From IMG/VR virus record IMGVR_UViG_3300008055_000147: a stretch of 44,468 nucleotides of DNA; one strand, 5' to 3'. The notes under the pieces are model-generated. The model was not told where the DNA came from. It searched no databases and saw only the letters and a program-made list of their open reading frames with translations. A program made the position numbers and the translations under genes. Position 1 is the stretch's first letter; every line of letters begins with the position of its first letter. The stretch is from a virus. This document shows, in pieces, positions 3,061 to 44,468 of this stretch.

Positions 3061-3087
3061 GGGGGCAGAAGCTTTACAGGGCTGTAT

Positions 3088-3528
3088 ATGATTTATCTGT
3101 CTTCTGTCCAGAAGCCTTTGGCCGTTTTACTGGTGGGATCCTGCCCTGCGATGAGGGAAGCATTGTCCTTAGGGGGTGCTTGTGGGCAGGTTTATGGAGT
3201 GATGTGGGAAGCGGCTTGGTACGACCAGAGGGGGGAGTGTGGGGGGACGACTGAGTTGAGCCATAAAGCGATTGGGGATCTGTGTCACCTGGGCAATGCG
3301 ACGGTGTTGAAGGCGATTGATGCGTTGTTGGATGACGGGATGATCCAGTGTTTGCATTTGGTGCCGAGTGGGAGGGGGAGTTGGAAAAGGAGGTATCGGG
3401 TCATCCATCCAGGCCGACTGGAGGCGCAGCGCAAGGCGATTGCTGTGATGGGTCCTGCGTTGTTGCCATCGGAGAGGGCGAAGCACTTGTTGCCGGTCTG
3501 GTCTGATGTGGAACCTCTTGTAGCCTGA
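3088..3528 (+). CDS. winged-helix DNA-binding protein
   Basis: HTH-like LSHKAIGDLCHLGNATVLKAIDALLDDGMI followed by a wing-like GRGSWKRRYRVI. The start is uncertain (the ATG at 3151 is also possible). Codon usage is atypical (TTG/GGG/GCG-rich). Confidence 0.55.
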   Translation: MIYLSSVQKPLAVLLVGSCPAMREALSLGGACGQVYGVMWEAAWYDQRGECGGTTELSHKAIGDLCHLGNATVLKAIDALLDDGMIQCLHLVPSGRGSWKRRYRVIHPGRLEAQRKAIAVMGPALLPSERAKHLLPVWSDVEPLVA

Positions 3529-4145: not shown

Positions 4146-5908
4146 TGCAACACCTCTGGGAGCCGTTACCAGAACCGCTGCATGACTTTGCCAATTTCTG
4201 CTGCTACCTCCTTAGGGAGCAGGGATTGGCTGATAGTCCAACCAAGCAGCAGGTAGCAGTTGCCCAGTGGATGCAGCACGGGCCAAGGAAGTCCCTAACC
4301 ATTGCCTACCGGGGGCTGGGGAAGTCGCTGTTGGCCAGCTACTACGCCTTATGGCGGTTGCGGTTGGACCCCAACGAGAAGTTGCTGATCGTCTCAGCTA
4401 CAGCCATCAAGGCAACGGACTTCACGCAGTTCATGCTGCGGACCATGGGGGAGGTGGACATCCTTCAGTGTCTCCTGCCTGGTCCTGCCAATCGTTTCTC
4501 CAACATTGCCTTTGATGTCGCTCCAGCCACGGTGGAGCAAAGCCCATCAGTGCGGGCCCTGGGGGTGCAAGCACAGACCACTGGTCAGCGTTGTACCTGC
4601 GCGATCCTGGATGACGTTGAGGTCCTCTCCAACACCATCACCCAGCTGAAGCAAGAGCGGGTGGCTCATGCAGTGGAGGAGATCGAGTCGATCATCAAGC
4701 CAGATGAAGGGCAGCTGCTGCCAAGGAAGGTGCTGTACCTAGGCACACCCCACACAGAAGCGTCTATTTACCTACGACTGGTTCGGGAAAGGGGGTATTC
4801 CAGTCGGTATTGGCCTGCTCTGTACCCCGAGGAACTGGACCCCTACGAGGGGAACCTATGCGGGCGGATTGAAGCTGAGGTGACAGCTGATCCGGGGCTG
4901 GTTGGAGAGCCCACTGACCCTGAACGGTTCAGCCATGAAGACCTGCTGCAGCGGCAGGCATCCATGACCAAGAGCACTTTCCAGCTGCAGTTCATGTTGA
5001 ACTGCCGGTTGGCCACCTTGGATCGCTACCCCATCCGCCTGGGGGACCTGATGGTGATGGATATTGACGCATCTGCCCTGCCAGAGACGGTGGTGTGGTC
5101 GTCGTCTCCTGAGTGCCGGCTGCAGGAGCTGGTTTGCGTTGGGATGGGCGCTGATCGCTTTTACCACCGCCCCATTTTTGTCAACGGCTGGATTTCCAAG
5201 AGTGAACACTGGCGCTGTGTCTTAGCTGTTGACCCTGCTGGTCGGGGTTCAGACGAGCTGGCTTGGGCTGTCGTCGCTGAATTGAACGGCAACTTCTTCC
5301 TTTTGGAGTCCGGTGGCAGCACCCTGGGCTATGCCGATGAGGTGCTGCAGTTCCTGGCCAAATTGGCCAAGAAGTGGGATGTGAACTACGTCATCAACGA
5401 ATCCAACATGGGCGATGGCATGTTTACAGCCCTGTTGAAGCCCCATTTGATGCGGGAACACGCCGTCACGATTGAGGAGGTGCGTCACAACATCAGAAAA
5501 GAGACCCGGCTGTGCGACACCTTGGGCCCGATCATTCAGCAACACCGCCTGGTGGTCACCACCAAGGTGATCAAGCAGGACTACCGGATGCAGGATGACG
5601 ACCCGGAGAACGGTTACAGCCGGTCTTTGTTCTTTCAGGCCAGTCGTCTTACCCCCGAGAGGGGGTGTTTGAGCCACGATGACCGTCTTGATGCGTTGGC
5701 CATCGCCTGTGCGTTCTTTGTCGAGTCCGCCGCCCAGGATCAGCGTGTTGCCAAGCAATCACGGGCCGATCAGCTCCAACAGGAGTCCTATGAAGCGTGG
5801 CTGGATGAAACTGGTGCTGCAGTGGATGCGTTAGCCCTCGGGTGGCGGCCAAGGGCTAGCACCGGCAGAGCCCATGGGGGTGTCACCCGGCTGCGGGTGG
5901 GCGCTTGA
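4145..5908 (+). CDS. terL: terminase large subunit (T7 gp19-like)
   Basis: 587 aa. Walker A-like AYRGLGKS near residue 55, as in T7-type TerL, and an acidic nuclease half at the C-terminus. Size and context fit. Confidence 0.85.
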   Translation: MQHLWEPLPEPLHDFANFCCYLLREQGLADSPTKQQVAVAQWMQHGPRKSLTIAYRGLGKSLLASYYALWRLRLDPNEKLLIVSATAIKATDFTQFMLRTMGEVDILQCLLPGPANRFSNIAFDVAPATVEQSPSVRALGVQAQTTGQRCTCAILDDVEVLSNTITQLKQERVAHAVEEIESIIKPDEGQLLPRKVLYLGTPHTEASIYLRLVRERGYSSRYWPALYPEELDPYEGNLCGRIEAEVTADPGLVGEPTDPERFSHEDLLQRQASMTKSTFQLQFMLNCRLATLDRYPIRLGDLMVMDIDASALPETVVWSSSPECRLQELVCVGMGADRFYHRPIFVNGWISKSEHWRCVLAVDPAGRGSDELAWAVVAELNGNFFLLESGGSTLGYADEVLQFLAKLAKKWDVNYVINESNMGDGMFTALLKPHLMREHAVTIEEVRHNIRKETRLCDTLGPIIQQHRLVVTTKVIKQDYRMQDDDPENGYSRSLFFQASRLTPERGCLSHDDRLDALAIACAFFVESAAQDQRVAKQSRADQLQQESYEAWLDETGAAVDALALGWRPRASTGRAHGGVTRLRVGA

Positions 5909-6122
5909 AGTCCACAACCTTGCCTTGCATCGACTCGAAGTTGAGTTTTCCTGCCAATTTGGCCAGAGTGCTGCCTTCTTGAGCAACGGCAGTGACGTTG
6001 TTCTGCTTCAGGAGGGCCAGCGCCTCAGACCTGGCCTTGCGATCACCGTTTTGCAGGTCTTCTAGGACCTGTTCAACCAGGGCTTCGTGCATCTGCCCGA
6101 GCATGTCTTGAAGGTCTGCCAT
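5883..6122 (-). CDS. terS: terminase small subunit-like protein (T7 gp18-like), inverted
   Basis: 79 aa from the ATG at 6122. ...MLGQMHEALVEQVLEDLQNGDRKARSEALALLKQNN...LAKLAGKL parallels T7 gp18 ...MLDTAMAQRMLADLSDHERRSPQLYNAIFKLLDRH...LGGLAGAL (T7 sequence recalled from memory). The 3' end overlaps the TerL 3' end by 26 nt. Confidence 0.5.
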   Translation of the reverse strand: MADLQDMLGQMHEALVEQVLEDLQNGDRKARSEALALLKQNNVTAVAQEGSTLAKLAGKLNFESMQGKVVDFKRPPAAG

Positions 6123-6138
6123 GACTACGGGGGTGGAG
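6123..6138 (-). promoter_or_regulatory. phage-RNAP-type promoter-like motif (CTCCACCCCCGTAGTC) abutting the terS ATG
   Basis: Minus-strand copy of the CHCCACCCC(C/T)GTA motif, directly before the only minus-strand gene in the late block. Confidence 0.45.
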
Positions 6139-6180: not shown

Positions 6181-6196
6181 TTACACCCCTGTCGTG
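6181..6196 (+). promoter_or_regulatory. phage-RNAP-type promoter-like motif (TTACACCCCTGTCGTG)
   Basis: Plus-strand copy, back-to-back with 6123-6138. It ends in the GTG start of the 6194 ORF that heads the virion operon. Confidence 0.45.
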
Positions 6197-9892: not shown

Positions 9893-10734
9893 CCACGACC
9901 CCACAGCTGACCACGCCTGAGGGCATCGAAGGGATGGTGGCCCCTGGCCAGGAGAACATCCTGGAGGAGTTCGTCAAAGAGCAGGAGACGCAGGAGCCTG
10001 AACTGCTACTAGGCAAGTTCAGGTCGCAGGACGACCTGGCCAAGGCATACCAGGAGCTGGAGAAGAAGCTGGGTCAGCCCAAAGAGCAGGCGGCTAATAC
10101 CGCCGAGCCAGAAGCGCCGGCCACGCCGCAGGAGTACAGCCGGGAGACCTCAATTGACGACTACGGCGAAGCCCTGTCCGACAAGTTTGAAGAAGCCCAG
10201 CTCAACCCCTACGAGATGGCTGCCGCCTGGGAGCGGGGTGACGACATTTCCAGCTACGTCGAGAAGCTCACCGGCACCGGCATCCCCAGGCAAGTGATTG
10301 AGCAGTACCTGGCCAGGGCCGAGGCCCAGGGCTCAACCCCTGCAGAAGCCCCAGGACTGACTGAATCAGACGCCGCTGAACTCAAGGCCATGGTCGGCGG
10401 GGACGCTGCCTTTAGCAAGTTGAGTCAGTGGGCTGCCAGCAACCTGGAGCAAGGCGAACTGGCCAAATACAACGCCGTGGTGGACAGCGGCAACAAAGAC
10501 GCCATCGAGTGGGCGCTGAAGGCCCTGCAGGCGCGGGTAGCCGCACCTGACTCCGTAGTGGAGCCAAAGCTCTACGGGGGTGGTGAAGCCGCAGCTGAGA
10601 CCAAGTTTGAAAGCCAGCAACAGGTTTTGGACGCAATGAACAAGCGGAATGGTCGCGGCCAGCGCATGTATGACGTTGATGAGGCTTATCGGGACAAGGT
10701 TCAGAGGTTGTTGGCAGTTAGCGATGTGTTCTAG
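9889..10734 (+). CDS. scaffolding protein (T7 gp9-like)
   Basis: 281 aa, highly acidic and A/E/Q-rich, between portal and capsid. Confidence 0.7.
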   Translation: MTTTPQLTTPEGIEGMVAPGQENILEEFVKEQETQEPELLLGKFRSQDDLAKAYQELEKKLGQPKEQAANTAEPEAPATPQEYSRETSIDDYGEALSDKFEEAQLNPYEMAAAWERGDDISSYVEKLTGTGIPRQVIEQYLARAEAQGSTPAEAPGLTESDAAELKAMVGGDAAFSKLSQWAASNLEQGELAKYNAVVDSGNKDAIEWALKALQARVAAPDSVVEPKLYGGGEAAAETKFESQQQVLDAMNKRNGRGQRMYDVDEAYRDKVQRLLAVSDVF

Positions 10735-11976: not shown

Positions 11977-12013
11977 GGCGCTCTACCATTAGTCCACAGC
12001 CGTGTAAGGGTCG

Positions 12014-19099: not shown

Positions 19100-19115
19100 C
19101 TACACCCCCGTGCAG
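19100..19115 (+). promoter_or_regulatory. phage-RNAP-type promoter-like motif (CTACACCCCCGTGCAG)
   Basis: Lies in the 100-bp gap before the 1855-aa gene, with AT-rich AATAA just upstream. Confidence 0.4.
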
Positions 19116-28215: not shown

Positions 28216-28266
28216 CCCATCACGGCCTCGGCGGGGCACAATAGGTCAACAGCCATGTAGTGGTCG

Positions 28267-31144: not shown

Positions 31145-31423
31145 ATGGCTCAATTCACGATCGACATCCCCGACGAACTACTGCCTGCCCTGGTGGTTGA
31201 GTTCGGTCTTGTTCAAGGCAGCACGACTGCCACCACGCCTGAAGAGTATTTCCAGGCCAGCATTGTTGAGACGGTGCGTCAACGCGCTGAGATTTATAAA
31301 GTTGGTCCGTACTTCACGGGACCTATTGATCCTCAGTACAACGCTGATGGCACCCCGTTTGGCGTTGTCCCTGAACCCCCGCTAGACAGCGACACTGCTC
31401 CGTTGGTTGAGGAGGAAGTATGA
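31145..31423 (+). CDS. hypothetical protein (92 aa)
   Basis: ATG at 31145 (MAQFTIDIPDELL...). The stop overlaps the next start. Confidence 0.5.
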   Translation: MAQFTIDIPDELLPALVVEFGLVQGSTTATTPEEYFQASIVETVRQRAEIYKVGPYFTGPIDPQYNADGTPFGVVPEPPLDSDTAPLVEEEV

Positions 31424-32235
31424 CGCTGATCATCAGCAAAGTCTTCACCTACGACACGGATGCTAGTGATTACATTCAGCGGGTCGAAGGAGCTTCTGGT
31501 GACAATCAAGCTCTGGAGCCCGCAACAAGGCAGGCCATCAACAACTTCGTCATTGGCTGCAAGCAGGACGGCATCTGGGACGCCATTAAGGCCAGCTGCA
31601 TCTTGAGTGGGGCACGGACGCTTCCGGGGGCGTTAACAACGCTCAAGCCAGCATCAGCCGGTGGAAACGTTGGCCCGACAAGCAACGGCGGATTTGGTCC
31701 TGGCGATTACAATCGGAAGACTGGATTGGTGGGTCAACCCTCCAACCCTAGTTACTTAAATAGTAACCGCGCCGCAAATGCAGATCCGCAAAACAGTTTT
31801 CACGCATCTTGTTTTATTTCTACGGTGCAAAGCAATGGCAAAGCTTTAATGGGTGCTGTTACAACAGGCCCATTAAATAGAATGGTTCAACTAGCGATTG
31901 ATAACGGTCAAGATGTTTGTGCGATCAGATCGGACGGCACCTTGCCCTCAACTAGGCCATCTCTTTCTTTTGCTACAGGTTTCATGGGAGGCAGCAGGCC
32001 GTCTAGCGCAACTTTTAATTTTCGCTATGACAATACTCAGTTGACAAAAAACGAAATTAGCTTAGCGCCGGCTGCTTTGGACATTTTTGTATTTGCTCAA
32101 AACCTAAACGGTAGTGTTTCTGCTGCCTCCTTAGCCCGCCTCGCTTTCTACTCCATCGGCGAATACCTCGACCTAGCCCTCCTTGACGCCCGCGTTTCAA
32201 CCCTTATTTCCGCATTTGCGGTAGCTATCCCATGA
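31420..32235 (+). CDS. fibre-associated protein (271 aa)
   Basis: Coupled to neighbouring genes in the fibre cluster. The central part (31741-32110) is about 43 percent GC by manual count. Confidence 0.5.
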   Translation: MTLIISKVFTYDTDASDYIQRVEGASGDNQALEPATRQAINNFVIGCKQDGIWDAIKASCILSGARTLPGALTTLKPASAGGNVGPTSNGGFGPGDYNRKTGLVGQPSNPSYLNSNRAANADPQNSFHASCFISTVQSNGKALMGAVTTGPLNRMVQLAIDNGQDVCAIRSDGTLPSTRPSLSFATGFMGGSRPSSATFNFRYDNTQLTKNEISLAPAALDIFVFAQNLNGSVSAASLARLAFYSIGEYLDLALLDARVSTLISAFAVAIP

Positions 32236-33038
32236 GCCCTTTAACTGAACCGACCAGGCTTGTGTTGCGCAAAGGAATGGGCACTTGGGCCGAAGGCGGC
32301 GACAATGTTTATTACATCGACGTGGCCGGTGTTGCTTACCGTGTTCACGAATTTAAGGCCGTTGGCACCACGTCGCTAAATGTTGTGAGTGGGGGCACTT
32401 TTCAATACCTGATTGTTGCTGGCGGGGGTGGAGGTGGAACTGGCGGTTATACGGTTGGTGGAGCCGGAGGTGGAGCCGGAGGATTTTTAACAGGAACAAC
32501 TGCTCTAAGTATCGGAGTATTCACAGTCAATACTGGGGCTGGCGGGGCTGGATCGGATCTTGACGGAGCAGCCTCAAGTTTTGCCGGAATTACCGCAACT
32601 GGTGGCGGAGGTGCTGTTTCTTTTAGTGATGGTCGCAACGGTGGGTCTGGCGCTGGCGCTCCAGGCGAAAACAGAACCGCAGGAGTTGGCATAGCTGGTC
32701 AAGGCAATAATGGCGCAATCGGGCGAGGTCTTGTCGGCAATGTCTCCACTTCTGGTGGCGGTGGCGGTGGTGCCGGTGGGCCTGGTGTCAGACCGAACCC
32801 CGGCCCAAACAATCCGGGCCCCGGCGGCGTGGGCTTAGCTTCTTCTATTTCTGGAACTTCCGTCGTTTATGCAAGCGGTGGTCAAGGCTCTATTAACATT
32901 GTCTTTACTCCGACTAATGCGCCTGCCAATAGCGGGAATGGAGGAGGAGGAGGAGGAGGAGGAACTAGCACAACTCTTCCAGGCCAATTAGGCGCTGCTG
33001 GCGGCTCCGGCATCGTCATCGTGAGGTACGCAATATGA
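32232..33038 (+). CDS. glycine-rich domain protein (fibre-like)
   Basis: YLIVAGGGGGGTGG..GGAGGGAGG..GGGGGGAG..GGGGGGGG..GSGIVIVRY is the typical phage glycine-rich domain architecture. Confidence 0.65.
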   Translation: MSPLTEPTRLVLRKGMGTWAEGGDNVYYIDVAGVAYRVHEFKAVGTTSLNVVSGGTFQYLIVAGGGGGGTGGYTVGGAGGGAGGFLTGTTALSIGVFTVNTGAGGAGSDLDGAASSFAGITATGGGGAVSFSDGRNGGSGAGAPGENRTAGVGIAGQGNNGAIGRGLVGNVSTSGGGGGGAGGPGVRPNPGPNNPGPGGVGLASSISGTSVVYASGGQGSINIVFTPTNAPANSGNGGGGGGGGTSTTLPGQLGAAGGSGIVIVRYAI

Positions 33039-33102
33039 CACCCGTTTCAACCCCCTCTCTTTATCAAACTCCTCCCTTTTCCTTTTCCTTCGAGGTGCTG
33101 TC

Positions 33103-33777
33103 ATGAGTTGGATTATTACGCCGCAGCAGCCGGTGCCCGTAGATCCGATCTACGGAAACGTGTCTCTGTTGCTTCACGGCAACGGCACCAACGGTTCCAC
33201 CACGATCACCGACAACAGCCCCAGCCCAAAGACGGTTACCGCTGTTGGCGGCGCCAAAATCAACACAACGCAAAGCAAATTTGGTGGATCAAGTATTTCT
33301 TTTAGAATAGTAAGTGAATCTGCTTACCTAGACATTCCAACGCTATCATTTGCAGTCGGTGAATCGTTTACATTGGAAGCTTGGTTGTATAAAACATCAA
33401 GAGACGGCACCGGCTATAGTAATATCTTTTCAGGGGGCGGGCCTAATCAATTCGGATACGACCTAACTACAGAGTCAACGATTTTTATGTATATTGCTGC
33501 CGGATTTGGAGTGGCAGAATCTGGCACGGCTGTTACTTATAATAATTGGCTTCATTTAGCTTGGACTAGGGACGGCGCAACGTGCCGAGCTTTTGTCAAT
33601 GGTGTTCAGCAAGGTACAGGCACAAGAAGCGAAGCCTTTACCATTTCGCGCATTGGCGCAACGTCTTCTGGTGCGCAAACCGTAGGCGGTTACGTTGACG
33701 AGCTTCGCATTACCAAGGGCATCGCCCGCTACACCGCTAACTTCACGCCCCCTGCTGCCCCGTTCCCGGACGCCTGA
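33103..33777 (+). CDS. LamG/concanavalin A-like lectin domain protein
   Basis: LLLHGNGTNGSTTITDNSP...FTLEAWLY...NWLHLAWTRDG...FVNG...GYVDELRITKGIARYTANFTPP is the typical Laminin_G_3-type pattern. Confidence 0.75.
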   Translation: MSWIITPQQPVPVDPIYGNVSLLLHGNGTNGSTTITDNSPSPKTVTAVGGAKINTTQSKFGGSSISFRIVSESAYLDIPTLSFAVGESFTLEAWLYKTSRDGTGYSNIFSGGGPNQFGYDLTTESTIFMYIAAGFGVAESGTAVTYNNWLHLAWTRDGATCRAFVNGVQQGTGTRSEAFTISRIGATSSGAQTVGGYVDELRITKGIARYTANFTPPAAPFPDA

Positions 33778-34063: not shown

Positions 34064-34079
34064 CTCCACCCCCGTAGCG
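34064..34079 (+). promoter_or_regulatory. phage-RNAP-type promoter-like motif (CTCCACCCCCGTAGCG)
   Basis: Lies in the 49-bp gap, 21 nt before the ATG at 34101. Confidence 0.4.
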
Positions 34080-34294: not shown

Positions 34295-35017
34295 CTACGC
34301 AGGGGGTGACCAAAGATTTGGGCGCTGTTTGCTGTGGTCATATTCCCCTGGCCGAAGGATGCGAGCACAGCGGGCCATCTGCACCGCAAAGGCAGGTGCA
34401 TGACCTGCCTTGAGGTATGCCTTCTGCACTGCCAGCCACATGTCTTCCTCGGTCTCACAGTCAGCCAATGCCTTGCTGGCTGCCACCGGGCCAACGCCTT
34501 TGCAACCTGGGTAGCCATCAGCCGCATCCCCGGTGAGCACCTGGCTGTAGAAGGCCAGGTCCGCCTGGGCCAGGGTGACCTCACTGATCTCAGTGCCCTG
34601 TAGGTGCAGGCCAGGGACTGTCTTCAGGTCTTTATCCCTAGAGACGATGACATCACCGGGCTCAGCCACCAGGGCGAGCACATCATCACCTTCCACATTG
34701 GCGATGAAGTGACTGGGCCAAAGGGATTCACACCAGGGTCTCAGTGCCCCATAGCCAGCAGGTCTACGGGTCTTGCGGCGGTTGGACTTGTAGTCGGAGT
34801 AGACCGCATATCTGTAGTTGGTGCGGTCACCAAAGCACAGGTGGATCTCAGCATCAGGGAGAGTGTTCTCGATAGCTGCCACCTCAGCTTCAAAAGCAGT
34901 CTTGGCATCAGTGATGCGGCAGAGGTAGGTCCACACATCAGGCTGCAGTTCAGCTTCGTATTCAGCAGCAGCAGCGCAGCGGTAGAGGAAGACCTCAGCA
35001 TCAATCAGGGCTTTCAT
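34295..35017 (-). CDS. 5'-3' exonuclease (T7 gp6-like, FEN/PIN family)
   Basis: MKALIDAEVFLYR..., YKSNRR, NVEGDDVLA and SRDKDL motifs are typical of the FEN-type exonuclease fold. It is the last gene of the leftward block. Confidence 0.8.
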   Translation of the reverse strand: MKALIDAEVFLYRCAAAAEYEAELQPDVWTYLCRITDAKTAFEAEVAAIENTLPDAEIHLCFGDRTNYRYAVYSDYKSNRRKTRRPAGYGALRPWCESLWPSHFIANVEGDDVLALVAEPGDVIVSRDKDLKTVPGLHLQGTEISEVTLAQADLAFYSQVLTGDAADGYPGCKGVGPVAASKALADCETEEDMWLAVQKAYLKAGHAPAFAVQMARCARILRPGEYDHSKQRPNLWSPPA

Positions 35018-37905: not shown

Positions 37906-38270
37906 GGCTTCTCATTCCAAATGATCTTCATGTAGATGGATGCGTCCTTGGGTGAAGCGTGTGACCAGCGCATGGCAATAGAGCGAATGACTGTCACGTT
38001 GTCGTCCTTCCAAATCAGGCCATTACCTGCATCAAGAAGTGAGCCCAGGCGGTTATCAAGGTCACCTCTGGCAGGGCCATGGAAGTGACAGATAAGGCAG
38101 TTGATGTGGATTAGGGGAGGGTCGGTCCACCACTCCCCCATCAGTGCCCGGCACTGCCCCAGCCACTCCTTGTAAACCTTGTCGGTGTAAGGGCGGGACT
38201 GCCCCATAAACGACCTGGGCCTGGCCTTGGAGATGGGCCTGATTGGCAGGGATAGGTCAGCTGTTTGCAT
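37902..38270 (-). CDS. rusA: RusA-like Holliday junction resolvase
   Basis: 122 aa. RGDLDNRLGSLLDAGNGLIWKDDNVT matches the RusA catalytic region. It occupies the position of T7 gp3. Confidence 0.7.
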   Translation of the reverse strand: MQTADLSLPIRPISKARPRSFMGQSRPYTDKVYKEWLGQCRALMGEWWTDPPLIHINCLICHFHGPARGDLDNRLGSLLDAGNGLIWKDDNVTVIRSIAMRWSHASPKDASIYMKIIWNEKP

Positions 38271-38818
38271 CAGAACGGCATCTCCGGGTCCACATACCCA
38301 CCGGGGACGACATCAAAAACTTCGGCGCCGCCTTTGCGCTCAAACTCCACTAGGTCCACGACCTGGGCCTTGAGTGGTTGGAAGGTCAGACCGCAACCAG
38401 TGGGGCCCTCCCATGCGTAGATCGAGAAGGCAATGATCACCTTGGAGCCGTTGCCGATCTCCTTATCAGCAGGCCAGGGGTTCTTGCGGGAGTCGAACAG
38501 GGTCGGCCCTTCAGAAGCGGTGCCGTCCTTGCGCTTGAACTCGTTGAGCTTGAAGCGCACCACGGTTTTGGTGTCGTCTTCTTTGTCGGCTTTCCAGGGG
38601 AAGGCTGCTGAGTGCTTGCGCTTCTGACCGTGGAGGGTTTCGTACTGGTCCTCCATCTGCACCAACCATTCCGCATGGGTCTTGTTGGCGTTGTCGAGCA
38701 CCAGATCAGTCGTCCACTGATTGGCCTTGCTGGGATCGAAGGTGTTGGGGCGGGCAGGGCCAACCAACTTGCACCACCGGACTTCTGCCAGGGGGGTGAC
38801 GTAAAGCTCTTTTGCCAT
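38270..38818 (-). CDS. single-stranded DNA-binding protein (T7 gp2.5-like)
   Basis: 182 aa, located just after the RNAP gene. The tail ends ...DPEMPF with a terminal Phe, as in gp2.5. The start is preceded by CCCACGACC (38821-38829). Confidence 0.7.
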   Translation of the reverse strand: MAKELYVTPLAEVRWCKLVGPARPNTFDPSKANQWTTDLVLDNANKTHAEWLVQMEDQYETLHGQKRKHSAAFPWKADKEDDTKTVVRFKLNEFKRKDGTASEGPTLFDSRKNPWPADKEIGNGSKVIIAFSIYAWEGPTGCGLTFQPLKAQVVDLVEFERKGGAEVFDVVPGGYVDPEMPF

Positions 38819-38820
38819 GT

Positions 38821-38829
38821 GGTCGTGGG
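38821..38829 (-). promoter_or_regulatory. early-gene box CCCACGACC, 2 nt before the SSB ATG
   Basis: Minus sense: CTACGACATTCCCACGACCAC-ATG. Confidence 0.5.
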
Positions 38830-38855
38830 AATGTCGTAGACCCAGCCAAGTTACC

Positions 38856-38880
38856 TAATACTCTCCACCCCTGTAAATAC
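38856..38880 (+). promoter_or_regulatory. phage-RNAP-type promoter-like motif (TAATACTCTCCACCCCTGTAAATAC), antisense to the RNAP gene
   Basis: Plus-strand copy 25 nt to the left of the RNAP stop codon (38905), so it points into the RNAP gene from its 3' end. Core 38863-38878 matches 41359-41374 at 15 of 16 positions. Confidence 0.45.
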
Positions 38881-38904
38881 CTACGAGCCGAGTCTCTTGC
38901 GTCT

Positions 38905-41217
38905 TTAGCTGAACAGGTAAGGGTTGTTGCCGATCTCGCCAGGGCAAAGCGTGTTCACCATTGGGGGTTCAGGCAGCACTTTCCCGCTCCTGTCCTGCAT
39001 CTCCTGGTGCCAGACGCCTAGCCAATCGGTTGAATACATACGACGCATCTCATCCAGCAGCATTTGATGTGTCGTACCAGCATGGCTGGGGTGGATGCTG
39101 AAGCAGTCGTGATTAGTCAGCACAGGGATGCCGTGCTCTCCAGCCCTGTGAACAATGGCCTGGAGGAACGCTGCATCCAGGCTGTGGGTGAAATTGGCAG
39201 CAATGCTTTTGTTTGCTCCCCGGTAGCTGAGGGGTGCATCTGCCGGCTGGTCGGCAATGTTCATTGACACCTTTTTGCCAAACAGCAGGGTGTTGACCGT
39301 GGTGGTCTTGGACTCCCGGTCAGCAATCCGCATGGGCCAGCCCATTGGGGACGTCCACTCCAGGGGCCTGGCGTCCGGCGGTGCCATCACCTTCTTGGCG
39401 CAGGCCCTCAGCCATCGCTGCAGGGTGTTGGTCAGCTGAAGCTGCTCTTTGATCTCAGCCCATAGGTGTTTGGCCAGGTATCGAGCAGGCACTGCCACCC
39501 GATAGGCGAACTGCTCCAGGGGCACCGGGCCAACGTGCTCAGCCATCAGATCCACCAGCCCATCGGTGAGGCTCATGTGTTTGCCGCCGTAGGGGGCCGC
39601 CAGCACGGCGCTTTTCACGGTGGAGCGGGTGATGCCGTAGTCCAGCCACAGCTGGCTCAGCCCCCGCTGGGCAGGGGTCTCATAGAACTCCTGGTCGTGC
39701 TTGAGACGGGCGATCAGCTTTCCTGCCACCACCCCATAGAGGTCCTTGGGGGTGGAGCCCCAGAGGTTGCACAGCCGGCCCACCTCCCTGTCCCGCATCA
39801 GGGCAGCAAGGATGCCTGGCCCGCTGGAGGTCTGGTCAAGGCGGATCGGCACCCCGGTGGAGCCCGTTTCCCGCACCTCCTTCATGCCGATGCAGACCTG
39901 GAGGTATTGCCAGGGGTCCTTAGCCCCGCGCCATAGCTCAAGCCTGCTGAGCGGGTCTTCAGCAGCTGCCAGCATTTCGGGTAGGTGGTCCCTGCCCCAT
40001 TGCAGGCGGTCCTCCCAACTGCTGCGCGACATGCCCCAGTGCCCTGCTGCTGCCTTGAGCATCCAGTCACAGCCTTCCGAGTTAACAGGGAACCTGGCCG
40101 CAAAGCTGAGCACTGCTTTCTCTGCATCGCTGCCCTGGTGGGAGACGTACCGATTCAGGGTGTAGAGCCTGCCTCGGTGGTCGGCGTTCCATGCCTGGTA
40201 GACGGTCTCTCCGGCCAGGGTTTCTGAGTGCTGCAGCGCCCGCTCAATCTTGATTCGTTTGGGTCTATGGATCTCCTGGTCCCGGTGTGCCTGCCAGGCC
40301 ATCGCGTTTCTGGCCTTGAGGTCTTCCTCGTTGGGATCTGAACCCAGCCGATCAGGCATTTGCATCGGCACCTTGGCGCAGGGCCATAGCCCGTCGATGC
40401 CGTTATCCCAGCTGATGCGTTGCAGCTCGATCAGCTCGGCACTTACCGACAGGGCGACGGACTGCAAGTGATTGACCCCGGCGATGATCCGGGCCATGTC
40501 CGCCTGGCGGTAGTGCTCGGTGGCCGTGGTCCTCAGCTCGTCCATATCTGGGACGGGCACCTTGATCAAACAGTCATCACTGCCCAGCAGGCCACCGCCG
40601 AACAGCCCCTCCCATGGCACTGGTGGGCAGAGCATGGCGGTGTGAGATGTCCTATGGCCAAGGGGCGGACAGGCAATCACAAACGCCATTGCCTCTTCGG
40701 TGGGCACCACAAAGTTGGGCATGGTCTTGCCAATCCGGTGCTTCACCATCCGCAGCAACCCCAGCCGCAGGATGTGATCCATCAGGAACTGCCCTACCTG
40801 AAGCCTGGTGCGGTCGTCCCACTTGGGTGCTGGGCAATGGAGCAGCGCCATCACCTTGGGGCTCGCCAGTGTGCGCTTAGCCATGCGCTCCCGGAGCAGC
40901 CGCCGCATCTCCACCGGCCTGGTATCCCGCAGCCGGATCAACCGGGCCTCAGCCTCCACTGCCCAGCCCAGGTGCTGGCAGAAGGTGGGGAGACGCTGCT
41001 TACGGGTCAGCTGGTCGATGGCTGCGGTGAGACCAACAGCTGCCAGCTGGGCCACTGAATCAAAGCTGTCGAGCATCGGGATAGCGCCCCAATGCACCCC
41101 TGCCTTGGTGGGGTCATCAGCAAAGCGGCTGAGGGTGGCATCCAGCTCAGCCTCCAGCACTCCTGCAGTGCGCTTGAACAGGGCTGAGCCGTAGGCCAGG
41201 GCGCTCTCCTTGCCCAT
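38905..41217 (-). CDS. single-subunit DNA-directed RNA polymerase (T7 gp1-like)
   Basis: RLDQTSSGPGILAALMRD, ANFTHSLDAAFLQ, LTNHDCFS and the C-terminal ...NPYLFS align with T7 RNAP FDGSCSGIQHFSAMLRD, PNFVHSQDGSHLR, LIHDSFG and ...DFAFA. The first in-frame ATG is at 41217. The open frame extends to a TTG at 41388, so the true start is unresolved. Confidence 0.92.
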   Translation of the reverse strand: MGKESALAYGSALFKRTAGVLEAELDATLSRFADDPTKAGVHWGAIPMLDSFDSVAQLAAVGLTAAIDQLTRKQRLPTFCQHLGWAVEAEARLIRLRDTRPVEMRRLLRERMAKRTLASPKVMALLHCPAPKWDDRTRLQVGQFLMDHILRLGLLRMVKHRIGKTMPNFVVPTEEAMAFVIACPPLGHRTSHTAMLCPPVPWEGLFGGGLLGSDDCLIKVPVPDMDELRTTATEHYRQADMARIIAGVNHLQSVALSVSAELIELQRISWDNGIDGLWPCAKVPMQMPDRLGSDPNEEDLKARNAMAWQAHRDQEIHRPKRIKIERALQHSETLAGETVYQAWNADHRGRLYTLNRYVSHQGSDAEKAVLSFAARFPVNSEGCDWMLKAAAGHWGMSRSSWEDRLQWGRDHLPEMLAAAEDPLSRLELWRGAKDPWQYLQVCIGMKEVRETGSTGVPIRLDQTSSGPGILAALMRDREVGRLCNLWGSTPKDLYGVVAGKLIARLKHDQEFYETPAQRGLSQLWLDYGITRSTVKSAVLAAPYGGKHMSLTDGLVDLMAEHVGPVPLEQFAYRVAVPARYLAKHLWAEIKEQLQLTNTLQRWLRACAKKVMAPPDARPLEWTSPMGWPMRIADRESKTTTVNTLLFGKKVSMNIADQPADAPLSYRGANKSIAANFTHSLDAAFLQAIVHRAGEHGIPVLTNHDCFSIHPSHAGTTHQMLLDEMRRMYSTDWLGVWHQEMQDRSGKVLPEPPMVNTLCPGEIGNNPYLFS

Positions 41218-41303
41218 CTCCTTGAGTCGTCGCTGCTGGGTCAGGTGGGCCTGGCGGGAGCGGGCCTCGGCTTTCAGCTGGCTTGCAATCTGGCGGGCTT
41301 CAA

Positions 41304-41313
41304 GGTCGTGGGT
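41304..41313 (-). promoter_or_regulatory. ACCCACGACC box upstream of the RNAP ATG
   Basis: Exact 10-mer within the open frame upstream of the ATG at 41217. Confidence 0.5.
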
Positions 41314-41350
41314 AACTTGCAATTGCAAATCCTTTGCTTGCAATAGGCAA

Positions 41351-41376
41351 TTTATCTTCTCCACCCCTGTAGATCC
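41351..41376 (+). promoter_or_regulatory. phage-RNAP-type promoter-like motif (TTTATCTTCTCCACCCCTGTAGATCC), pointing toward integrase (antisense)
   Basis: Plus-strand copy in the RNAP upstream region, facing the minus-strand int and MarR-like genes. Confidence 0.45.
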
Positions 41377-41386
41377 AGGTGCAAGC

Positions 41387-41421
41387 AATAAAAAAGGGTG
41401 TTGGCGACTTGCTCAACACCC
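41387..41421 (-). terminator. rho-independent terminator after the integrase gene
   Basis: Minus sense: GGGTGTTG-agcaagtcgc-CAACACCC (8-bp stem) followed by TTTTTTATT. Lies 125 nt past the integrase stop and before the RNAP region. Confidence 0.75.
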
Positions 41422-41545
41422 CTGCAGGGACTCATTTTTGGGATTTTAAGTCCGCTGCGTATACCAATTTCGCCATGCCCCCCAATGGATCTCAGCTGCG
41501 CTTGTGTGCAAGTTGCAAGCAAGTGCAAGTCGGTCCGTGCAAATC

Positions 41546-42547
41546 CTATTGGCGTGTGGACGCAGAAGACAGAACTGCAATGCAATCATCCAGGTCCTGG
41601 GTATCTAGGTGGAGGTAACGGGACACCGCTGCCAGGGTCGTGTGCCCTGAGTAGCGCATCAGCTTGGGCAGGGGGATGCCACCGCCCCCCATGCGTGAGC
41701 AGACGGTATGGCGAGCTGTGTGGATGGTTACGTCATGCAGCCCCAGGGCCAGCTTGGCGTTATCGAACTGGGTCCGCATCTGCCCGTAGCTGATCGTCCA
41801 CACCCGGTAGGTGGGCCGCGGCGGGATGTGCTCGGCCAGTGCATCCATCGCCCTGGTGGTCAATGGGATGGTGCGGGGCTTGCCGTTCTTGGTTCTCCAA
41901 AAGGTGCAGCGGCCTTTCTGGAGGTCAACGTCCTCACCCTTGAGGGCCAGCACCTCCCCGATGCGAGCGCCGGTTTCAGTCAGAAAGACCAGTAGATCGG
42001 CGCACTCCGTTTTGCCGGTGGCCAGGAACCAGGCCACAAACGCCTCGATCTCCTTGTCGGTGAACACCCGGTCCTTGGTGTTGGCCAGCTTCAGCTGGGG
42101 CGGGTACTGAGGCTTTTCCTGGATGTGGCCGTAGGTCAGGGCCTCGGATGCCATAGCCCGCAGTGCGGAGACCGTGTGATTGACGGTGCTGGGCTGGCTG
42201 CCTGCCTTGAGTTGCTCCTGCCTGAATTGGTTTACCTCAGGTGCCCGGATGTCCTCCAGCGGGCACTTGGCGCCGAAGCGGGTGATCCACTTCTGGGCAT
42301 TGATGATCGCGGTTCTACCTCCGGCGGTGCCCTGCCATCTCGTCTGGATGGTCAGCTCCAGAGCCTGCGCCAAGGTGAAGGCGGTGTATCGGGTCTTGGG
42401 TGTGGCAGTGGGCCCCTGGAGGGCCTCCTGCAGCCGGGCCTGAGCCTCTGCCTTGGTGGCTGCTGATAATTGGCGGCGTTGGCCGTTGACGCGGAGATTG
42501 ACTACCCAGCCAGAAGCTCGCCGGGTGATTGTGCCTGTTGTGTCCAT
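41546..42547 (-). CDS. int: tyrosine recombinase (phage integrase)
   Basis: 333 aa. The C-terminal catalytic region TGARIGEVL...HTARHTVCSRM...SGHTTLAAVSRYLHL supplies the R, HxxR, H and Y residues. ACCCACGACCA-ATG start context. Confidence 0.9.
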   Translation of the reverse strand: MDTTGTITRRASGWVVNLRVNGQRRQLSAATKAEAQARLQEALQGPTATPKTRYTAFTLAQALELTIQTRWQGTAGGRTAIINAQKWITRFGAKCPLEDIRAPEVNQFRQEQLKAGSQPSTVNHTVSALRAMASEALTYGHIQEKPQYPPQLKLANTKDRVFTDKEIEAFVAWFLATGKTECADLLVFLTETGARIGEVLALKGEDVDLQKGRCTFWRTKNGKPRTIPLTTRAMDALAEHIPPRPTYRVWTISYGQMRTQFDNAKLALGLHDVTIHTARHTVCSRMGGGGIPLPKLMRYSGHTTLAAVSRYLHLDTQDLDDCIAVLSSASTRQ

Positions 42548-42885
42548 TGGTCGTGGGTGGTGAGTTCAAGGGCCTGGAGGACCGTCTGCATAACGGCCTT
42601 GCCCTTGGCGTTCAAGCGGACGCGATGGCGCCTGCCTTCGTTTGGATCGCGGAAAATCTCGATCAGGTTGAGGGTCGACGCTCTCCGGTTGGAGGTATCG
42701 CTCAAGGCGCCGCAGATCCGGGAGACTGAGGCATTGCTGAGGTTGAACTCGGCCTCGATCTCCGCATAGGTGCAAGCACCCTTTTGGGCGATAAAGACCA
42801 GTGCCTGAGCGTGGTGGAGCGGAAGAGCTGAAGGGTCCAGCAAGTTGAAAATTGCCAGAGCCCTGGCCAGTCGATGTAAAGCCAT
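42502..42885 (-). CDS. MarR-like winged-helix regulator
   Basis: ATG at 42885. LHHAQALVFIAQKGACTYAEIEAEFNLSNASVSRICGALSD...RRHRVRLNAKGKAV is a MarR-type wHTH. Overlaps the integrase start by 46 nt. Confidence 0.65.
   Translation of the reverse strand: MALHRLARALAIFNLLDPSALPLHHAQALVFIAQKGACTYAEIEAEFNLSNASVSRICGALSDTSNRRASTLNLIEIFRDPNEGRRHRVRLNAKGKAVMQTVLQALELTTHDQWTQQAQSPGELLAG
42549..42558 (-). promoter_or_regulatory. ACCCACGACC box, 1 nt before the integrase ATG
   Basis: Minus sense: GAACTCACCACCCACGACCA-ATG. Lies inside the MarR-like coding sequence. Confidence 0.5.
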
Positions 42886-43068
42886 GGTGTAGCAGGCGGG
42901 ACTCCTGCAGGACTGGAGATGAACTCTGGCACAAGAGTCGTACTTCCTGTCGCCCCCGAGGCGTAAATGGCGCACAGTGCGGCATGGCGAGGACGCCCAC
43001 CAATACTGAGTTCTATGGACACCAAGAGGGTTTGATTTCGCAAAAGAGTCGTAGTGATTTTGCGTACA

Positions 43069-43084
43069 CTACACCCCTGAAGTA
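43069..43084 (+). promoter_or_regulatory. phage-RNAP-type promoter-like motif (CTACACCCCTGAAGTA), antisense
   Basis: Plus-strand copy at the 3' end of the minus-strand wHTH gene, pointing into it. Confidence 0.35.
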
Positions 43085-43413
43085 ATCAGCACTCCTGCTG
43101 CGCTCAGCATTTCTCGGCACTGGCTGGTCAGCTGGAAGTAGTAAGCCCGCCCTACCCGTCGGCGCTGCACTAGGTACAGCTCTGGCTTTTTTACCGTCCG
43201 GGTTTTCTTGTCCCACCAGACCAAGAACTGCCTAGCCCCTCGGCTAATTTGGCCATCGCTGGCCTTGGTGTAGGTCATCAGCTGAGCCGTTGACAGGCGG
43301 CCATGGGCGGCCAGCAGCAGGATTATTTCCACCGACACCAGGCCGATATTGGTGCGGGGTCCGGTGTTTATGCGAAGTGTGCACAAAAAGGCGCTGCAAT
43401 GCGCGGCGTTCAT
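43069..43413 (-). CDS. winged-helix DNA-binding protein (114 aa)
   Basis: ATG at 43413, preceded by ACCCACGACC (43431-43440). VEIILLLAAHGRLSTAQLMTYTKASDGQISRGARQF...RVGRAYYFQLT is wHTH-like. Confidence 0.55.
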   Translation of the reverse strand: MNAAHCSAFLCTLRINTGPRTNIGLVSVEIILLLAAHGRLSTAQLMTYTKASDGQISRGARQFLVWWDKKTRTVKKPELYLVQRRRVGRAYYFQLTSQCREMLSAAGVLITSGV

Positions 43414-43430
43414 CGGCTTCACTGGTTTGA

Positions 43431-43440
43431 GGTCGTGGGT
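43431..43440 (-). promoter_or_regulatory. ACCCACGACC box
   Basis: Exact 10-mer, 17 nt before the ATG at 43413. Confidence 0.5.
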
Positions 43441-43503
43441 AGGGGCAGCCCCTCCCGGCATCTTAAAGAGACATCTACACGGGTGCAAGGTTGGGTTAGG
43501 CGT

Positions 43504-44238: not shown

Positions 44239-44299
44239 GGGGAAAGGCGCTGCTGCCTGAATTATTGCCGGCTTTTCCTTCTCTCCATGGTTGTTTAGT

Positions 44300-44337
44300 A
44301 AACCCAGCAGGGAACCCCTCAGGGCTCCGGGATGGGA
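44300..44337 (-). repeat. structured intergenic element, partial copy E5 (hairpin A only)
   Basis: Minus sense: TGA-TCCCATCCC-GGAGCCC-TGAG-GGGTTCC-CTGCTGGGTTT. Lacks hairpin B and the box. Confidence 0.6.
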
Positions 44338-44468
44338 TCACTGGAACTCGTCTGGGCTCCCTTTTGCCTCCTCCTGCATCCTCTTCTCGTAGGCAAGCCA
44401 AGCCTTGATGCGCTCGGCCCGCTTGCTTACCGGTATCTCGGGCCCGTTGAAAAAGAGCTTGCTGTAGC
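44338..44468 (-). CDS. small membrane protein, 3' part (continuation of the 1..199 ORF)
   Basis: C-terminal ...KRMQEEAKGSPDEFQ, with the stop TGA at 44340..44338. Bases 44370-44468 duplicate 1-99. Confidence 0.55.
   Translation of the reverse strand, partial: YSKLFFNGPEIPVSKRAERIKAWLAYEKRMQEEAKGSPDEFQ
44370..44468. repeat. 99-bp exact terminal duplication (copy 2)
   Basis: Identical to bases 1-99. Confidence 0.95.

Follow-up and report, generated by a model that had tools for sequence, protein, structure and literature searches.

LUZ100 is a temperate-type T7-like phage of Pseudomonas whose promoters have been mapped by ONT-cappable-seq (Putzeys et al. 2023; PMC10134795). In this phage a host promoter drives the marR-int genes, terminator T4 follows int, and the phage promoter phi1 lies directly upstream of the RNA polymerase (RNAP) gene; phi1 is proposed to provide positive feedback on RNAP that is blocked by MarR, and MarR sites are proposed to flank the RNAP promoter (PMC10134795). 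Tandem promoters phi2 and phi3 immediately precede SSB, the major capsid protein (MCP) gene has a local promoter and a strong terminator around it, and antisense RNA was seen in the structural region (PMC10134795). Here we describe a family of short promoter-like motifs in a virus genome of 44,468 bases, IMG/VR record IMGVR_UViG_3300008055_000147 (the window, by which we mean the whole stretch of DNA analysed). Two copies, a and b, lie on either side of its single-subunit RNAP gene, and a third and weaker match, c, lies upstream of a MarR-like gene.

The window shares with LUZ100 the order MarR-like gene, int, terminator, promoter-type copy and RNAP, although the direction of copy b is putative. 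Promoter-type copies also precede SSB (copy a and an element at 38881-38894, both predicted), and the MCP gene is bracketed, in the window by a copy embedded in the scaffold gene and a terminator. There are clear differences. LUZ100 is collinear throughout, whereas the early and late blocks of the window are on opposite strands; the window motif is unrelated in sequence to the LUZ100 promoters and has a dyad-symmetric core with a G- or C-run; and, unlike LUZ100, the window has an attP site (a partial tRNA) between int and the terminator.

Among cyanophages the only characterised promoter is that of the Syn5 RNAP, ATTGGGCACCCGTAA followed by G, which has been defined experimentally (Zhu et al., PMC3950665). 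Like the motif described here it is short (∼15 bp) and C-rich with GTAA just before position +1, the cores show a loose resemblance, and one Syn5 copy is found right after the terminase gene and one in association with the RNAP gene. However, Syn5 has two copies only, both in the sense direction and without dyad symmetry, the alignment needs an indel of 1–2 nt, and the RNAPs are just 26% identical.

In T7, promoters phi1.1A and phi1.1B follow gene 1, and phi10 precedes the capsid gene with terminator Tphi after it. The window follows the same positional logic, with a promoter-type copy directly after the RNAP gene and another before, and a terminator after, the MCP gene; T7 differs in the absence of a phage promoter before gene 1, in the common orientation of all its promoters, and in leaders with Shine-Dalgarno (SD) sequences. 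Circuits based on cis-antisense or convergent transcription are familiar in temperate phages, as in lambda OOP and paQ, P22 sar, and pR-pL of coliphage 186, where host RNAP is used and the transcripts have been mapped. These resemble a model in which copies a and b fire only against the genes of their block, in that a promoter fires against a regulatory gene, but in the window the direction is putative and the markers of polarity are not kept between orthologues.

Motif copies flanking the RNAP gene

An earlier note on this genome reported three motif strings on the plus strand, and these are found exactly where it placed them: copy a at 38863-38878 (CTCCACCCCTGTAAAT), copy b at 41359-41374 (CTCCACCCCTGTAGAT) and copy c at 43069-43084 (CTACACCCCTGAAGTA). 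The 16-mer has three matches in the window with up to three mismatches, where 0.36 are expected. The 14-mer core CTCCACCCCYGTAR is more strongly over-represented, with four exact matches (38863, 41359 and 34064 on the plus strand and 6138..6125 on the minus strand) and one with a single mismatch (10585..10572, minus strand) against 0.04 expected, and none of 100 shuffled sequences reaches five matches. Copies a and b are alike at 19 of 25 positions, one fewer than the approximate 20 first counted.

Copy a (core 38863..38876, taken here on the minus strand) has the sequence TTACAGGGGTGGAG on the minus strand, the sense strand of the genes, and CTCCACCCCTGTAA on the plus strand. The RNAP stop (38905) and the SSB start (38818) leave a gap of 86 nt, in which copy a is placed 27 nt past the stop and 45 nt before the SSB ATG; orthologous sites are present in the same gap of L018, L005, L027, L028, L029, L043, L003, L004 and the uvMED phage S37C6. 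Just upstream and in tandem with it is a degenerate second element (38881..38894, minus strand, GACTCGGCTCGTAG), which is as far from the RNAP stop as the single a-site of several relatives and so corresponds to it in position. Copy b (core 41359..41372, CTACAGGGGTGGAG on the minus strand) lies ∼18 nt after the T-run of a terminator and is 37 nt before the RNAP start codon, TTG 41322. The placement of a in the RNAP-SSB gap and of b between a minus-strand terminator and the RNAP start is thus as previously described.

The description of these copies as genuine promoter-like elements holds well for a and b, given the 0.04 matches expected, but is weaker for c. Copy c (43069..43082, minus-strand sequence CTTCAGGGGTGTAG) precedes the MarR-like ATG (42885) by 183 nt. 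Its 3' arm is TGAAG where YGTAG would be expected, it overlaps the final codons of the open reading frame (ORF) 43069..43488, which encodes a winged helix-turn-helix protein, and it is part of a hairpin. Because of this poor 3' arm, the overlap with the end of an ORF and the membership of a hairpin, its place as a genuine member of the family appears doubtful. The sequence of the close relative L023 does not cover the site of copy c.

The motif family at late units and in related phages

The family core is 14 bp long, with the form YTRCR-N4-YGKAG within a dyad-symmetric frame, CTNCA-N4-TGNAG. Four of the five arm pairs are formed in a and b, and all five at the S37C6 a-site and at 3075-3086 in the window. 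As the earlier note stated, the motif precedes late genes. Copy m1 (6125..6138, minus strand, CTCCACCCCCGTAG) lies 2 nt before the ATG of TerS (5883..6122), an abutment that is kept in ∼25 relatives and in the freshwater Synechococcus phage S-SRP02, and copy m2 (6181..6194, plus strand, TTACACCCCTGTCG) abuts the GTG at 6194 of the first ORF of the head region. The remaining late copies are all on the plus strand. An exact copy at 34064..34077 (again CTCCACCCCCGTAG) is 23 nt before ATG 34101, the start of the holin-like gene (61 aa) that closes the late block, and is exact also in L165 and L212 (∼96% nucleotide identity) and in L230 (87%), though the flanks change. A weaker member (CTACACCCCCGTGC) is found at 19100..19113, 50 nt before ATG 19163, and related variants are present at 11994..12007 (CCACAGCCGTGTAA), after the MCP terminator and 6 nt before the ATG of the tail-tube-A gene, and at 28247..28260 (CAACAGCCATGTAG), 6 nt before ATG 28267. 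In the divergent region between the early (minus) and late (plus) genes, the palindrome with perfect arms at 3075..3086 (TACAGGGCTGTA) adjoins ATG 3088.

The same arrangement extends to ∼40 related contigs, in which the family heads transcription units, following terminators or gaps and preceding the first gene of each unit. The architecture after TerL is common to ∼25 of the related contigs with G+C contents of 37–60% (loci L046-L071 and L002): the TerS start codon is 1–4 nt from a first element, a gap of 45–75 nt follows, and then comes a second, inverted element, 0–3 nt away from the start (GTG or ATG) of the first head ORF. The spacing of motif and start codon is constant at these sites, that between the two motifs variable. 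Two inverted copies flush against the TerS and head gene starts imply either leaderless divergent mRNAs or face-to-face promoters, if the copies are indeed promoters. At the tail-tube-A site 12 relatives have the MCP terminator, an A[TG][TG]AG box, the core, 5–8 nt and then ATG, and in the late region the motif is often 0–7 nt from start codons that have no SD sequence. In the window the first genes of units (3088, 6194, 6122 on the minus strand, 12014, 28267 and 34101) lack SD sequences and the internal genes have SDs of the GGAG type.

One further copy, at 10572..10585 on the plus strand (CTACGGGGGTGGTG on the sense strand), is embedded in the scaffold gene ∼270 nt upstream of the MCP ATG. 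The codons CCA-AAG-CTC-TAC-GGG-GGT-GGA (within EPKLYGGG) are fixed in six lineages that share 44–58% amino acid identity, even though they include the rare codons CTC (11%), GGT (19%) and GGA (8%); the synonymous sites, at 10560-10585 in the window, are frozen likewise in L048, L002, L156, L242 and L140. The constraint on nucleotide sequence reaches 5' of the core and ends at its 3' end. In the S-SRP02-like clade, the same peptide, EPxL[IL]GGG, is encoded by codons that vary freely. A regulatory element appears to be embedded in the scaffold coding sequence upstream of the capsid gene, and with a terminator of −21.7 kcal/mol at the MCP gene it brackets that gene.

We have adopted a family of phage promoters as the working identity of these motifs. 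This prediction follows from the non-random repetition, the placement at the heads of units, the SD-less first genes, the presence of a cognate RNAP gene and the loose resemblance to the Syn5 promoter. The arm sequence differs by RNAP clade, with CTGCA in the S-SRP02-like clade and YTACR elsewhere. A scan of the sequence collection with the exact 14-mer returned mostly unrelated chance matches, the only relatives being L165, L212, L230, L156, L145, L140, L242, L175 and L176.

Other identities were considered and set aside. An RNA hairpin formed by the arms shows no compensatory change, and A.G and G.G mismatches at arm position 3 are usual; long-range pairing between m1 and m2 is not borne out, as the centres do not covary in low-GC relatives (TATG and CCTC); and by inspection, an NtcA, LexA or CRP-type box is a misfit in half-site order and spacing.

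Direction of copies a and b

The earlier note had the motif pointing antisense across the early block. By the C-run, the CTCCA 5' arm and the YGTA 3' arm this is an accurate description of a and b in the window, although the core is dyad-symmetric and its centre flips in relatives. More than 40 sites have their direction fixed by an abutting start codon, and at these the sense strand has a pyrimidine- or C-rich centre (∼74% pyrimidine over ∼25 independent sites), T at position three of the 3' arm and a YGTAR arm. At the b-sites the flanks on the RNAP-sense strand are kept in relatives, with CTGG and 2–4 nt upstream and (G)AATAACTTGC or AGATAAATTGC downstream, while the centre reads GGGG (window, L023, L005), GGGC (L027), GCCC (L003), CCCG (L004) or CCCA (L006). 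The a-site orthologues keep an AG[TC]A flank downstream, with centres that are G-rich in the window, L018, L027, L028, L005 and L004, C-rich in L029 and L043, and neutral in L003 and S37C6. On the strand that is sense for SSB, nine of 13 orthologues of the a type have GAG[CT]A as the initial sequence after the core, and the L030 element directly adjoins the SSB ATG in sense orientation.

Because the centre flips at orthologous a and b sites while the asymmetric flanks stay, the C-run is not a dependable arrow, and judged from these alignments the character of the centre, C-run or G-run, is an unreliable marker of direction; a switch of direction with unchanged flanks would be unlikely. Among the strongly polar copies of the window a C-run rule makes four sense and three antisense, and a G-run rule five sense and two antisense. 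Attempts to read direction from the C-run, the arms, the post-core bases or an initial sequence like that of Syn5 (GCAAG) were each abandoned as conflicting among relatives.

We favour the reading in which a and b are sense promoters for the phage RNAP, directed toward their neighbouring genes, and we give this prediction about an even chance. It is ranked first because of the positional match to LUZ100 and the conservation of the flanks. Action toward SSB, RNAP and MarR-int had been raised previously as an alternative, and finds better support here than the antisense reading. Copy b would then be a phi1-type promoter after the int/attP terminator, providing positive feedback on RNAP that a repressor could block via the TTGCAA repeats around it, and copy a with its degenerate tandem partner would serve SSB and the replication genes. 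The apparent antisense polarity would reflect no more than the G-run or C-run at the centre of a near-palindromic core. The copy embedded in the scaffold gene, which is G-run-sense before the capsid gene, would act like a sense promoter of the phi10 type, and the mRNAs of the units would be leaderless or nearly so.

Several observations weigh against the sense reading, and most of them speak for the proposal that a and b are late-type promoters firing only antisense, over RNAP from a and over attP, int and the MarR-like gene from b, with occlusion of host-type promoters and a late shut-off of the block. In that orientation a and b are identical at 13 of 14 positions to the TerS-abutting copy and likewise to the copy at 34064; they have the C-rich centre and YGTA arm found where a start codon fixes the direction, and the C-run orientation ends in GTA followed by R, as does the Syn5 promoter. 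AT-rich boxes (CCTAAT and CAATTT) lie in their plus-strand flanks, as they do upstream of several late copies, and in L023 an ATTAG immediately precedes copy b when this is read in the C-run orientation. Start-codon-abutting sites of the window clade never have the TGGAG arm; in S-SRP02 the abutting late sites do use it (CTGCACCTGTGGAG-tgctc-ATG), with an arm polarity that matches its b-site upstream of RNAP, a result that speaks against the C-run as an arrow. Taken by themselves, then, the markers intrinsic to the window sequence would have a and b point along the plus strand. G-run-sense polarity is shared, for a, by the window, L018, L005, L027, L028 and L004 and, for b, by the window, L023, L005, L025 and the S-SRP02-like clade.

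SSB, moreover, could be served without a phage promoter. A predicted sigma70-like promoter (−35, N17-18, TAnnnT) in the RNAP-SSB gap (38819-38905 in the window) is conserved in 10 relatives and is seen in the orthologous gaps of L004, L005, L018, L028, L029, L030, L043, L001 and L002, and the core of a overlaps its −35 and spacer. The sequences are TTTACA-N18-TAACTT in the window, TTTACA-N18-TATGTT in L018, TTGCAC-N17-TACCTT in L004, TTACGG-N17-TACGTT in L028, TTGCAA-N17-TAAGTT in L029, TTGATT-N17-TAAGTT in L043 and TTGACG-N17-TACCTT in S-SRP02, where the promoter occurs without the 14-mer. The convergent layout of the genome already exposes the early block to late plus-strand read-through, and antisense RNA was seen in LUZ100. 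Against these points, the polarity flips at orthologous sites with the flanks fixed, giving sense-polarity a-sites in L029, L043 and L030 and sense-polarity b-sites in L003, L004 and L006. If both copies fired only antisense the replication genes would be without a phage promoter, and the embedded G-run-sense copy before the MCP gene would need to be antisense too. Downstream of a and b the plus strand has neither a terminator nor a conserved feature, and the precedent of LUZ100 is one of sense promoters. We therefore consider purely antisense firing unlikely, and the antisense shut-off circuit that was the leading interpretation of the earlier note gives way in view of the flipped centres, the scaffold copy, the positions in LUZ100 and the weakness of the third copy.

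A broader form of the idea, in which a and b fire wholly or partly on the plus strand, produce antisense RNA over RNAP, attP, int and the MarR-like gene, occlude the host-type promoters of RNAP and SSB and so act as a commitment switch, we regard as unlikely. Put simply as firing that is either antisense or bidirectional, it is a tentative and rather unlikely alternative. In its strictly bidirectional version, the dyad-symmetric arms would load RNAP either way with unequal strength, to serve SSB and RNAP and to make antisense RNA. At least three of the five arm pairs are symmetric in every member of the family, and all of them at the S37C6 a-site (CTACA-N4-TGTAG); in the S-SRP02 clade TerS and the C39 peptidase gene diverge from a gap of 29 nt that is occupied by a single element, and both polarities occur at sites with a gene on one side only. 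Nevertheless the flanking boxes are asymmetric and conserved, and we know of no single-subunit RNAP that uses one promoter in both orientations; the T7 promoter has partial symmetry, yet is unidirectional. Bidirectional firing thus seems improbable. We give the same low standing to the view that the 14-mer is a dimeric operator, bound by a phage regulator of the winged helix-turn-helix (wHTH) or MarR type at control points before RNAP, SSB, TerS and the head genes, MCP and the holin-like gene. The dyad arms are 9 bp apart centre to centre, about one helical turn, and occur in both orientations, a and b overlap the −35 and spacer zone of sigma70-like promoters, and the MarR-like and other wHTH genes are conserved in the lineage. 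But the MarR-like protein would more plausibly bind the TTGCAA cluster, the late copies are flush with SD-less starts with no other conserved promoter upstream, and the arm sequence varies with the RNAP clade. Finally, two direct repeats bracketing the RNAP gene might suggest recombination scars, target-site duplications left by insertion of that gene, or chance similarity. This is scarcely credible and the scar interpretation is rejected, as 0.04 copies are expected and further ones occur elsewhere in the genome, every relative has RNAP, a core gene, at this position, and the a and b copies of relatives differ from each other (CTACGGGGATGGAG and ATACGGGGCCGTAG in L027; TTGCACAGGGGCGAAG and ATACACCCGTGTAA in L004).

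Genomic setting and implications

Positions 1-99 of the window overlap exactly with 44370-44468 (99 bp), such that the 44,468 bases represent a circular assembly of ∼44,369 bp, with a G+C content of 58.8%. The window is an Autographiviridae-type (T7-like) cyanopodovirus, with distant nucleotide similarity (∼65%) to the uvMED Oinezvirus S37C6 and to S-SRP02. A minus-strand block runs from ∼3000 through the junction down to 34295 and contains the small early genes, the C39 peptidase, MarR-like, integrase, RNAP and SSB genes, the primase/helicase gene and the 5'-3' exonuclease gene (34295..35017). The plus-strand block, from 3088 to 34286, contains TerL, the head, capsid, tail and fibre genes and the holin-like gene. 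TerS, on the minus strand, is convergent with TerL (Pfam DNA_Packaging_2, E 3e-11). No prophage copy of the window clade was found in a scan of genome contigs, and no known RNA family was found in the window (Rfam).

The RNAP gene (38905..41322, minus strand; Pfam RNA_pol, E 1e-52) encodes a protein of 805 aa with 52% identity to that of S37C6, 37% to S-SRP02 and 26% to Syn5. Its start had been placed at ATG 41217, but L023, which is 91% identical, has CAG at that position and conservation at the protein level runs further upstream to a common TTG-CAA start; we have therefore moved the start to TTG 41322. SSB (38270..38818, minus strand) is the first gene after copy a, with a homologue annotated as SSB in S37C6 and S-SRP02 and an N-terminus that is kept in relatives; its start is preceded by CCCACGACCAC.

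We note that the sequence (A)CCCACGACC has nine minus-strand copies and one plus-strand copy in the window. The minus-strand sites are at 783, 1369, 2039, 2263, 3571, 38829, 42557 and 43439, with one at 41312 that is coding (T-H-D-L of RNAP); these copies are in the early block, 1–17 nt upstream of SD-less starts that include SSB, int and small early genes. The copy at SSB is orthologous to TTCCACGACCGT directly followed by ATG at the L030 SSB start, which it abuts, and to GGACCACGACCACATG in S37C6. The element could be a translation-initiation signal or a degenerate class of promoter.

The integrase gene (41546..42547, minus strand; Pfam Phage_integrase, E 2e-20) is upstream of attP, and together with the MarR-like gene (42502..42885, minus strand) it is co-oriented with RNAP and upstream of it. 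The MarR-like protein matches MarR_2 with E 1e-4, below the curated Pfam cut-off, and is homologous to proteins annotated as MarR in S-SRP02 and S37C6; in a comparison of three phages the homologues stand at an equal distance from one another (45% identity), which makes them uninformative as to whether motif type follows MarR rather than RNAP phylogeny. On the minus strand the interval from int to RNAP has the order int stop, TTGCA[AC] repeats, partial tRNA, terminator, TTGCAC, copy b, and four TTGCAA/TTGCC repeats that overlap the RNAP start codon (TTGCAATTGCAAG). The 43-nt tRNA-like segment (41441..41483, minus strand) resembles tRNA-Leu(UAA) and consists of the 5' half only, with acceptor, D and anticodon arms; ARAGORN finds no complete tRNA there, and it is these three arms that give the match to the Rfam tRNA model (17.2 bits, E 0.51). 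The same segment also adjoins int in L005, L013, L016, L019 and S-SRP02, and other relatives have a tRNA fragment with a CAT anticodon in its stead. The partial tRNA is probably the attP core.

The intrinsic terminator (41390..41421, minus strand), after int and attP, is formed by a hairpin at 41396-41421 with a G+C-rich stem of 8–9 bp followed by TTTTTT (dG −16.7). On the plus strand the hairpin has no U-run alongside, and in L023 it is maintained by different sequences. We infer that after integration it would shield the RNAP gene from read-through of the host tRNA promoter. The TTGCA[AC] repeats cluster at 41283..41542, on both sides of attP and copy b, with 15 of 40 genome-wide matches in 260 bp, although the word is depleted overall (40 compared with 68 expected); the cluster also holds CTTGCAAG palindromic repeats. 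Operators for the MarR-like protein and arm sites for Int are equally candidate roles, although similar repeats occur at the equivalent place in relatives with different attP and Int types, which would favour the first. A sigma70 promoter using copy b as its −35 was also considered and rejected, as the gap to a conserved TAAATT-type hexamer is only 11–13 nt (window, L023, L005 and L013).

The orientation of the early block differs among relatives. In S-SRP02 (L001) the early and late blocks run in one direction, the inverted genes being just TerL, the C39 peptidase gene and one small gene, whereas in the window and S37C6 (L002) the entire early block is turned round against the late one. Large inversions have therefore taken place in the lineage, which has nonetheless kept its motif sites. 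The first gene of the plus block (3088-3528) encodes a helix-turn-helix (HTH)-like protein that is 57% identical to S37C6 BAQ94372 and matches no Pfam family; its first 10 residues are unconserved, and the true start may be TTG 3118. On the minus strand G+C-rich hairpin cassettes (such as CAGCCCGGAGCCCTTAGGGGTTCCCTGCTGGG) at 766-832, 1354-1431, 2017-2091, 2270-2310 and ∼44290-44330 separate small early genes; ACCCACGACC and a start codon come after each cassette, and the cassettes are reminiscent of RNase III processing sites or the PeSL-like shuffling modules of other phages. Three distal tail-fibre-like ORFs (31420-33777) have a G+C content of 52.3%, compared to 58.8% for the genome, poor codon-usage scores and a GGAGGAGGAGG repeat near 32940; this segment may be a recently acquired host-range module.

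The most likely function of the copies around the RNAP gene is the ordinary one described for phages of the LUZ100 type, that of sense promoters before RNAP and SSB. If a and b do act in this direction, the window would be a cyanobacterial example of the temperate T7-like design MarR-int-terminator-promoter-RNAP with self-feedback of the RNAP, a design that is newly recognised and bears on the maintenance of lysogeny in the Autographiviridae. For a group of cyanopodoviruses from fresh and marine waters that is as yet uncharacterised, the family also offers a candidate promoter consensus, with two unusual traits: the cores are dyad-symmetric, and the late units start 0–7 nt ahead of start codons that lack an SD, such that their mRNAs would have no leader or almost none. 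Should antisense or bidirectional firing prove true, a single-subunit RNAP would here regulate itself and the genes of lysogeny by a new route, and would be the first such RNAP to use near-palindromic promoters that can fire in both directions.

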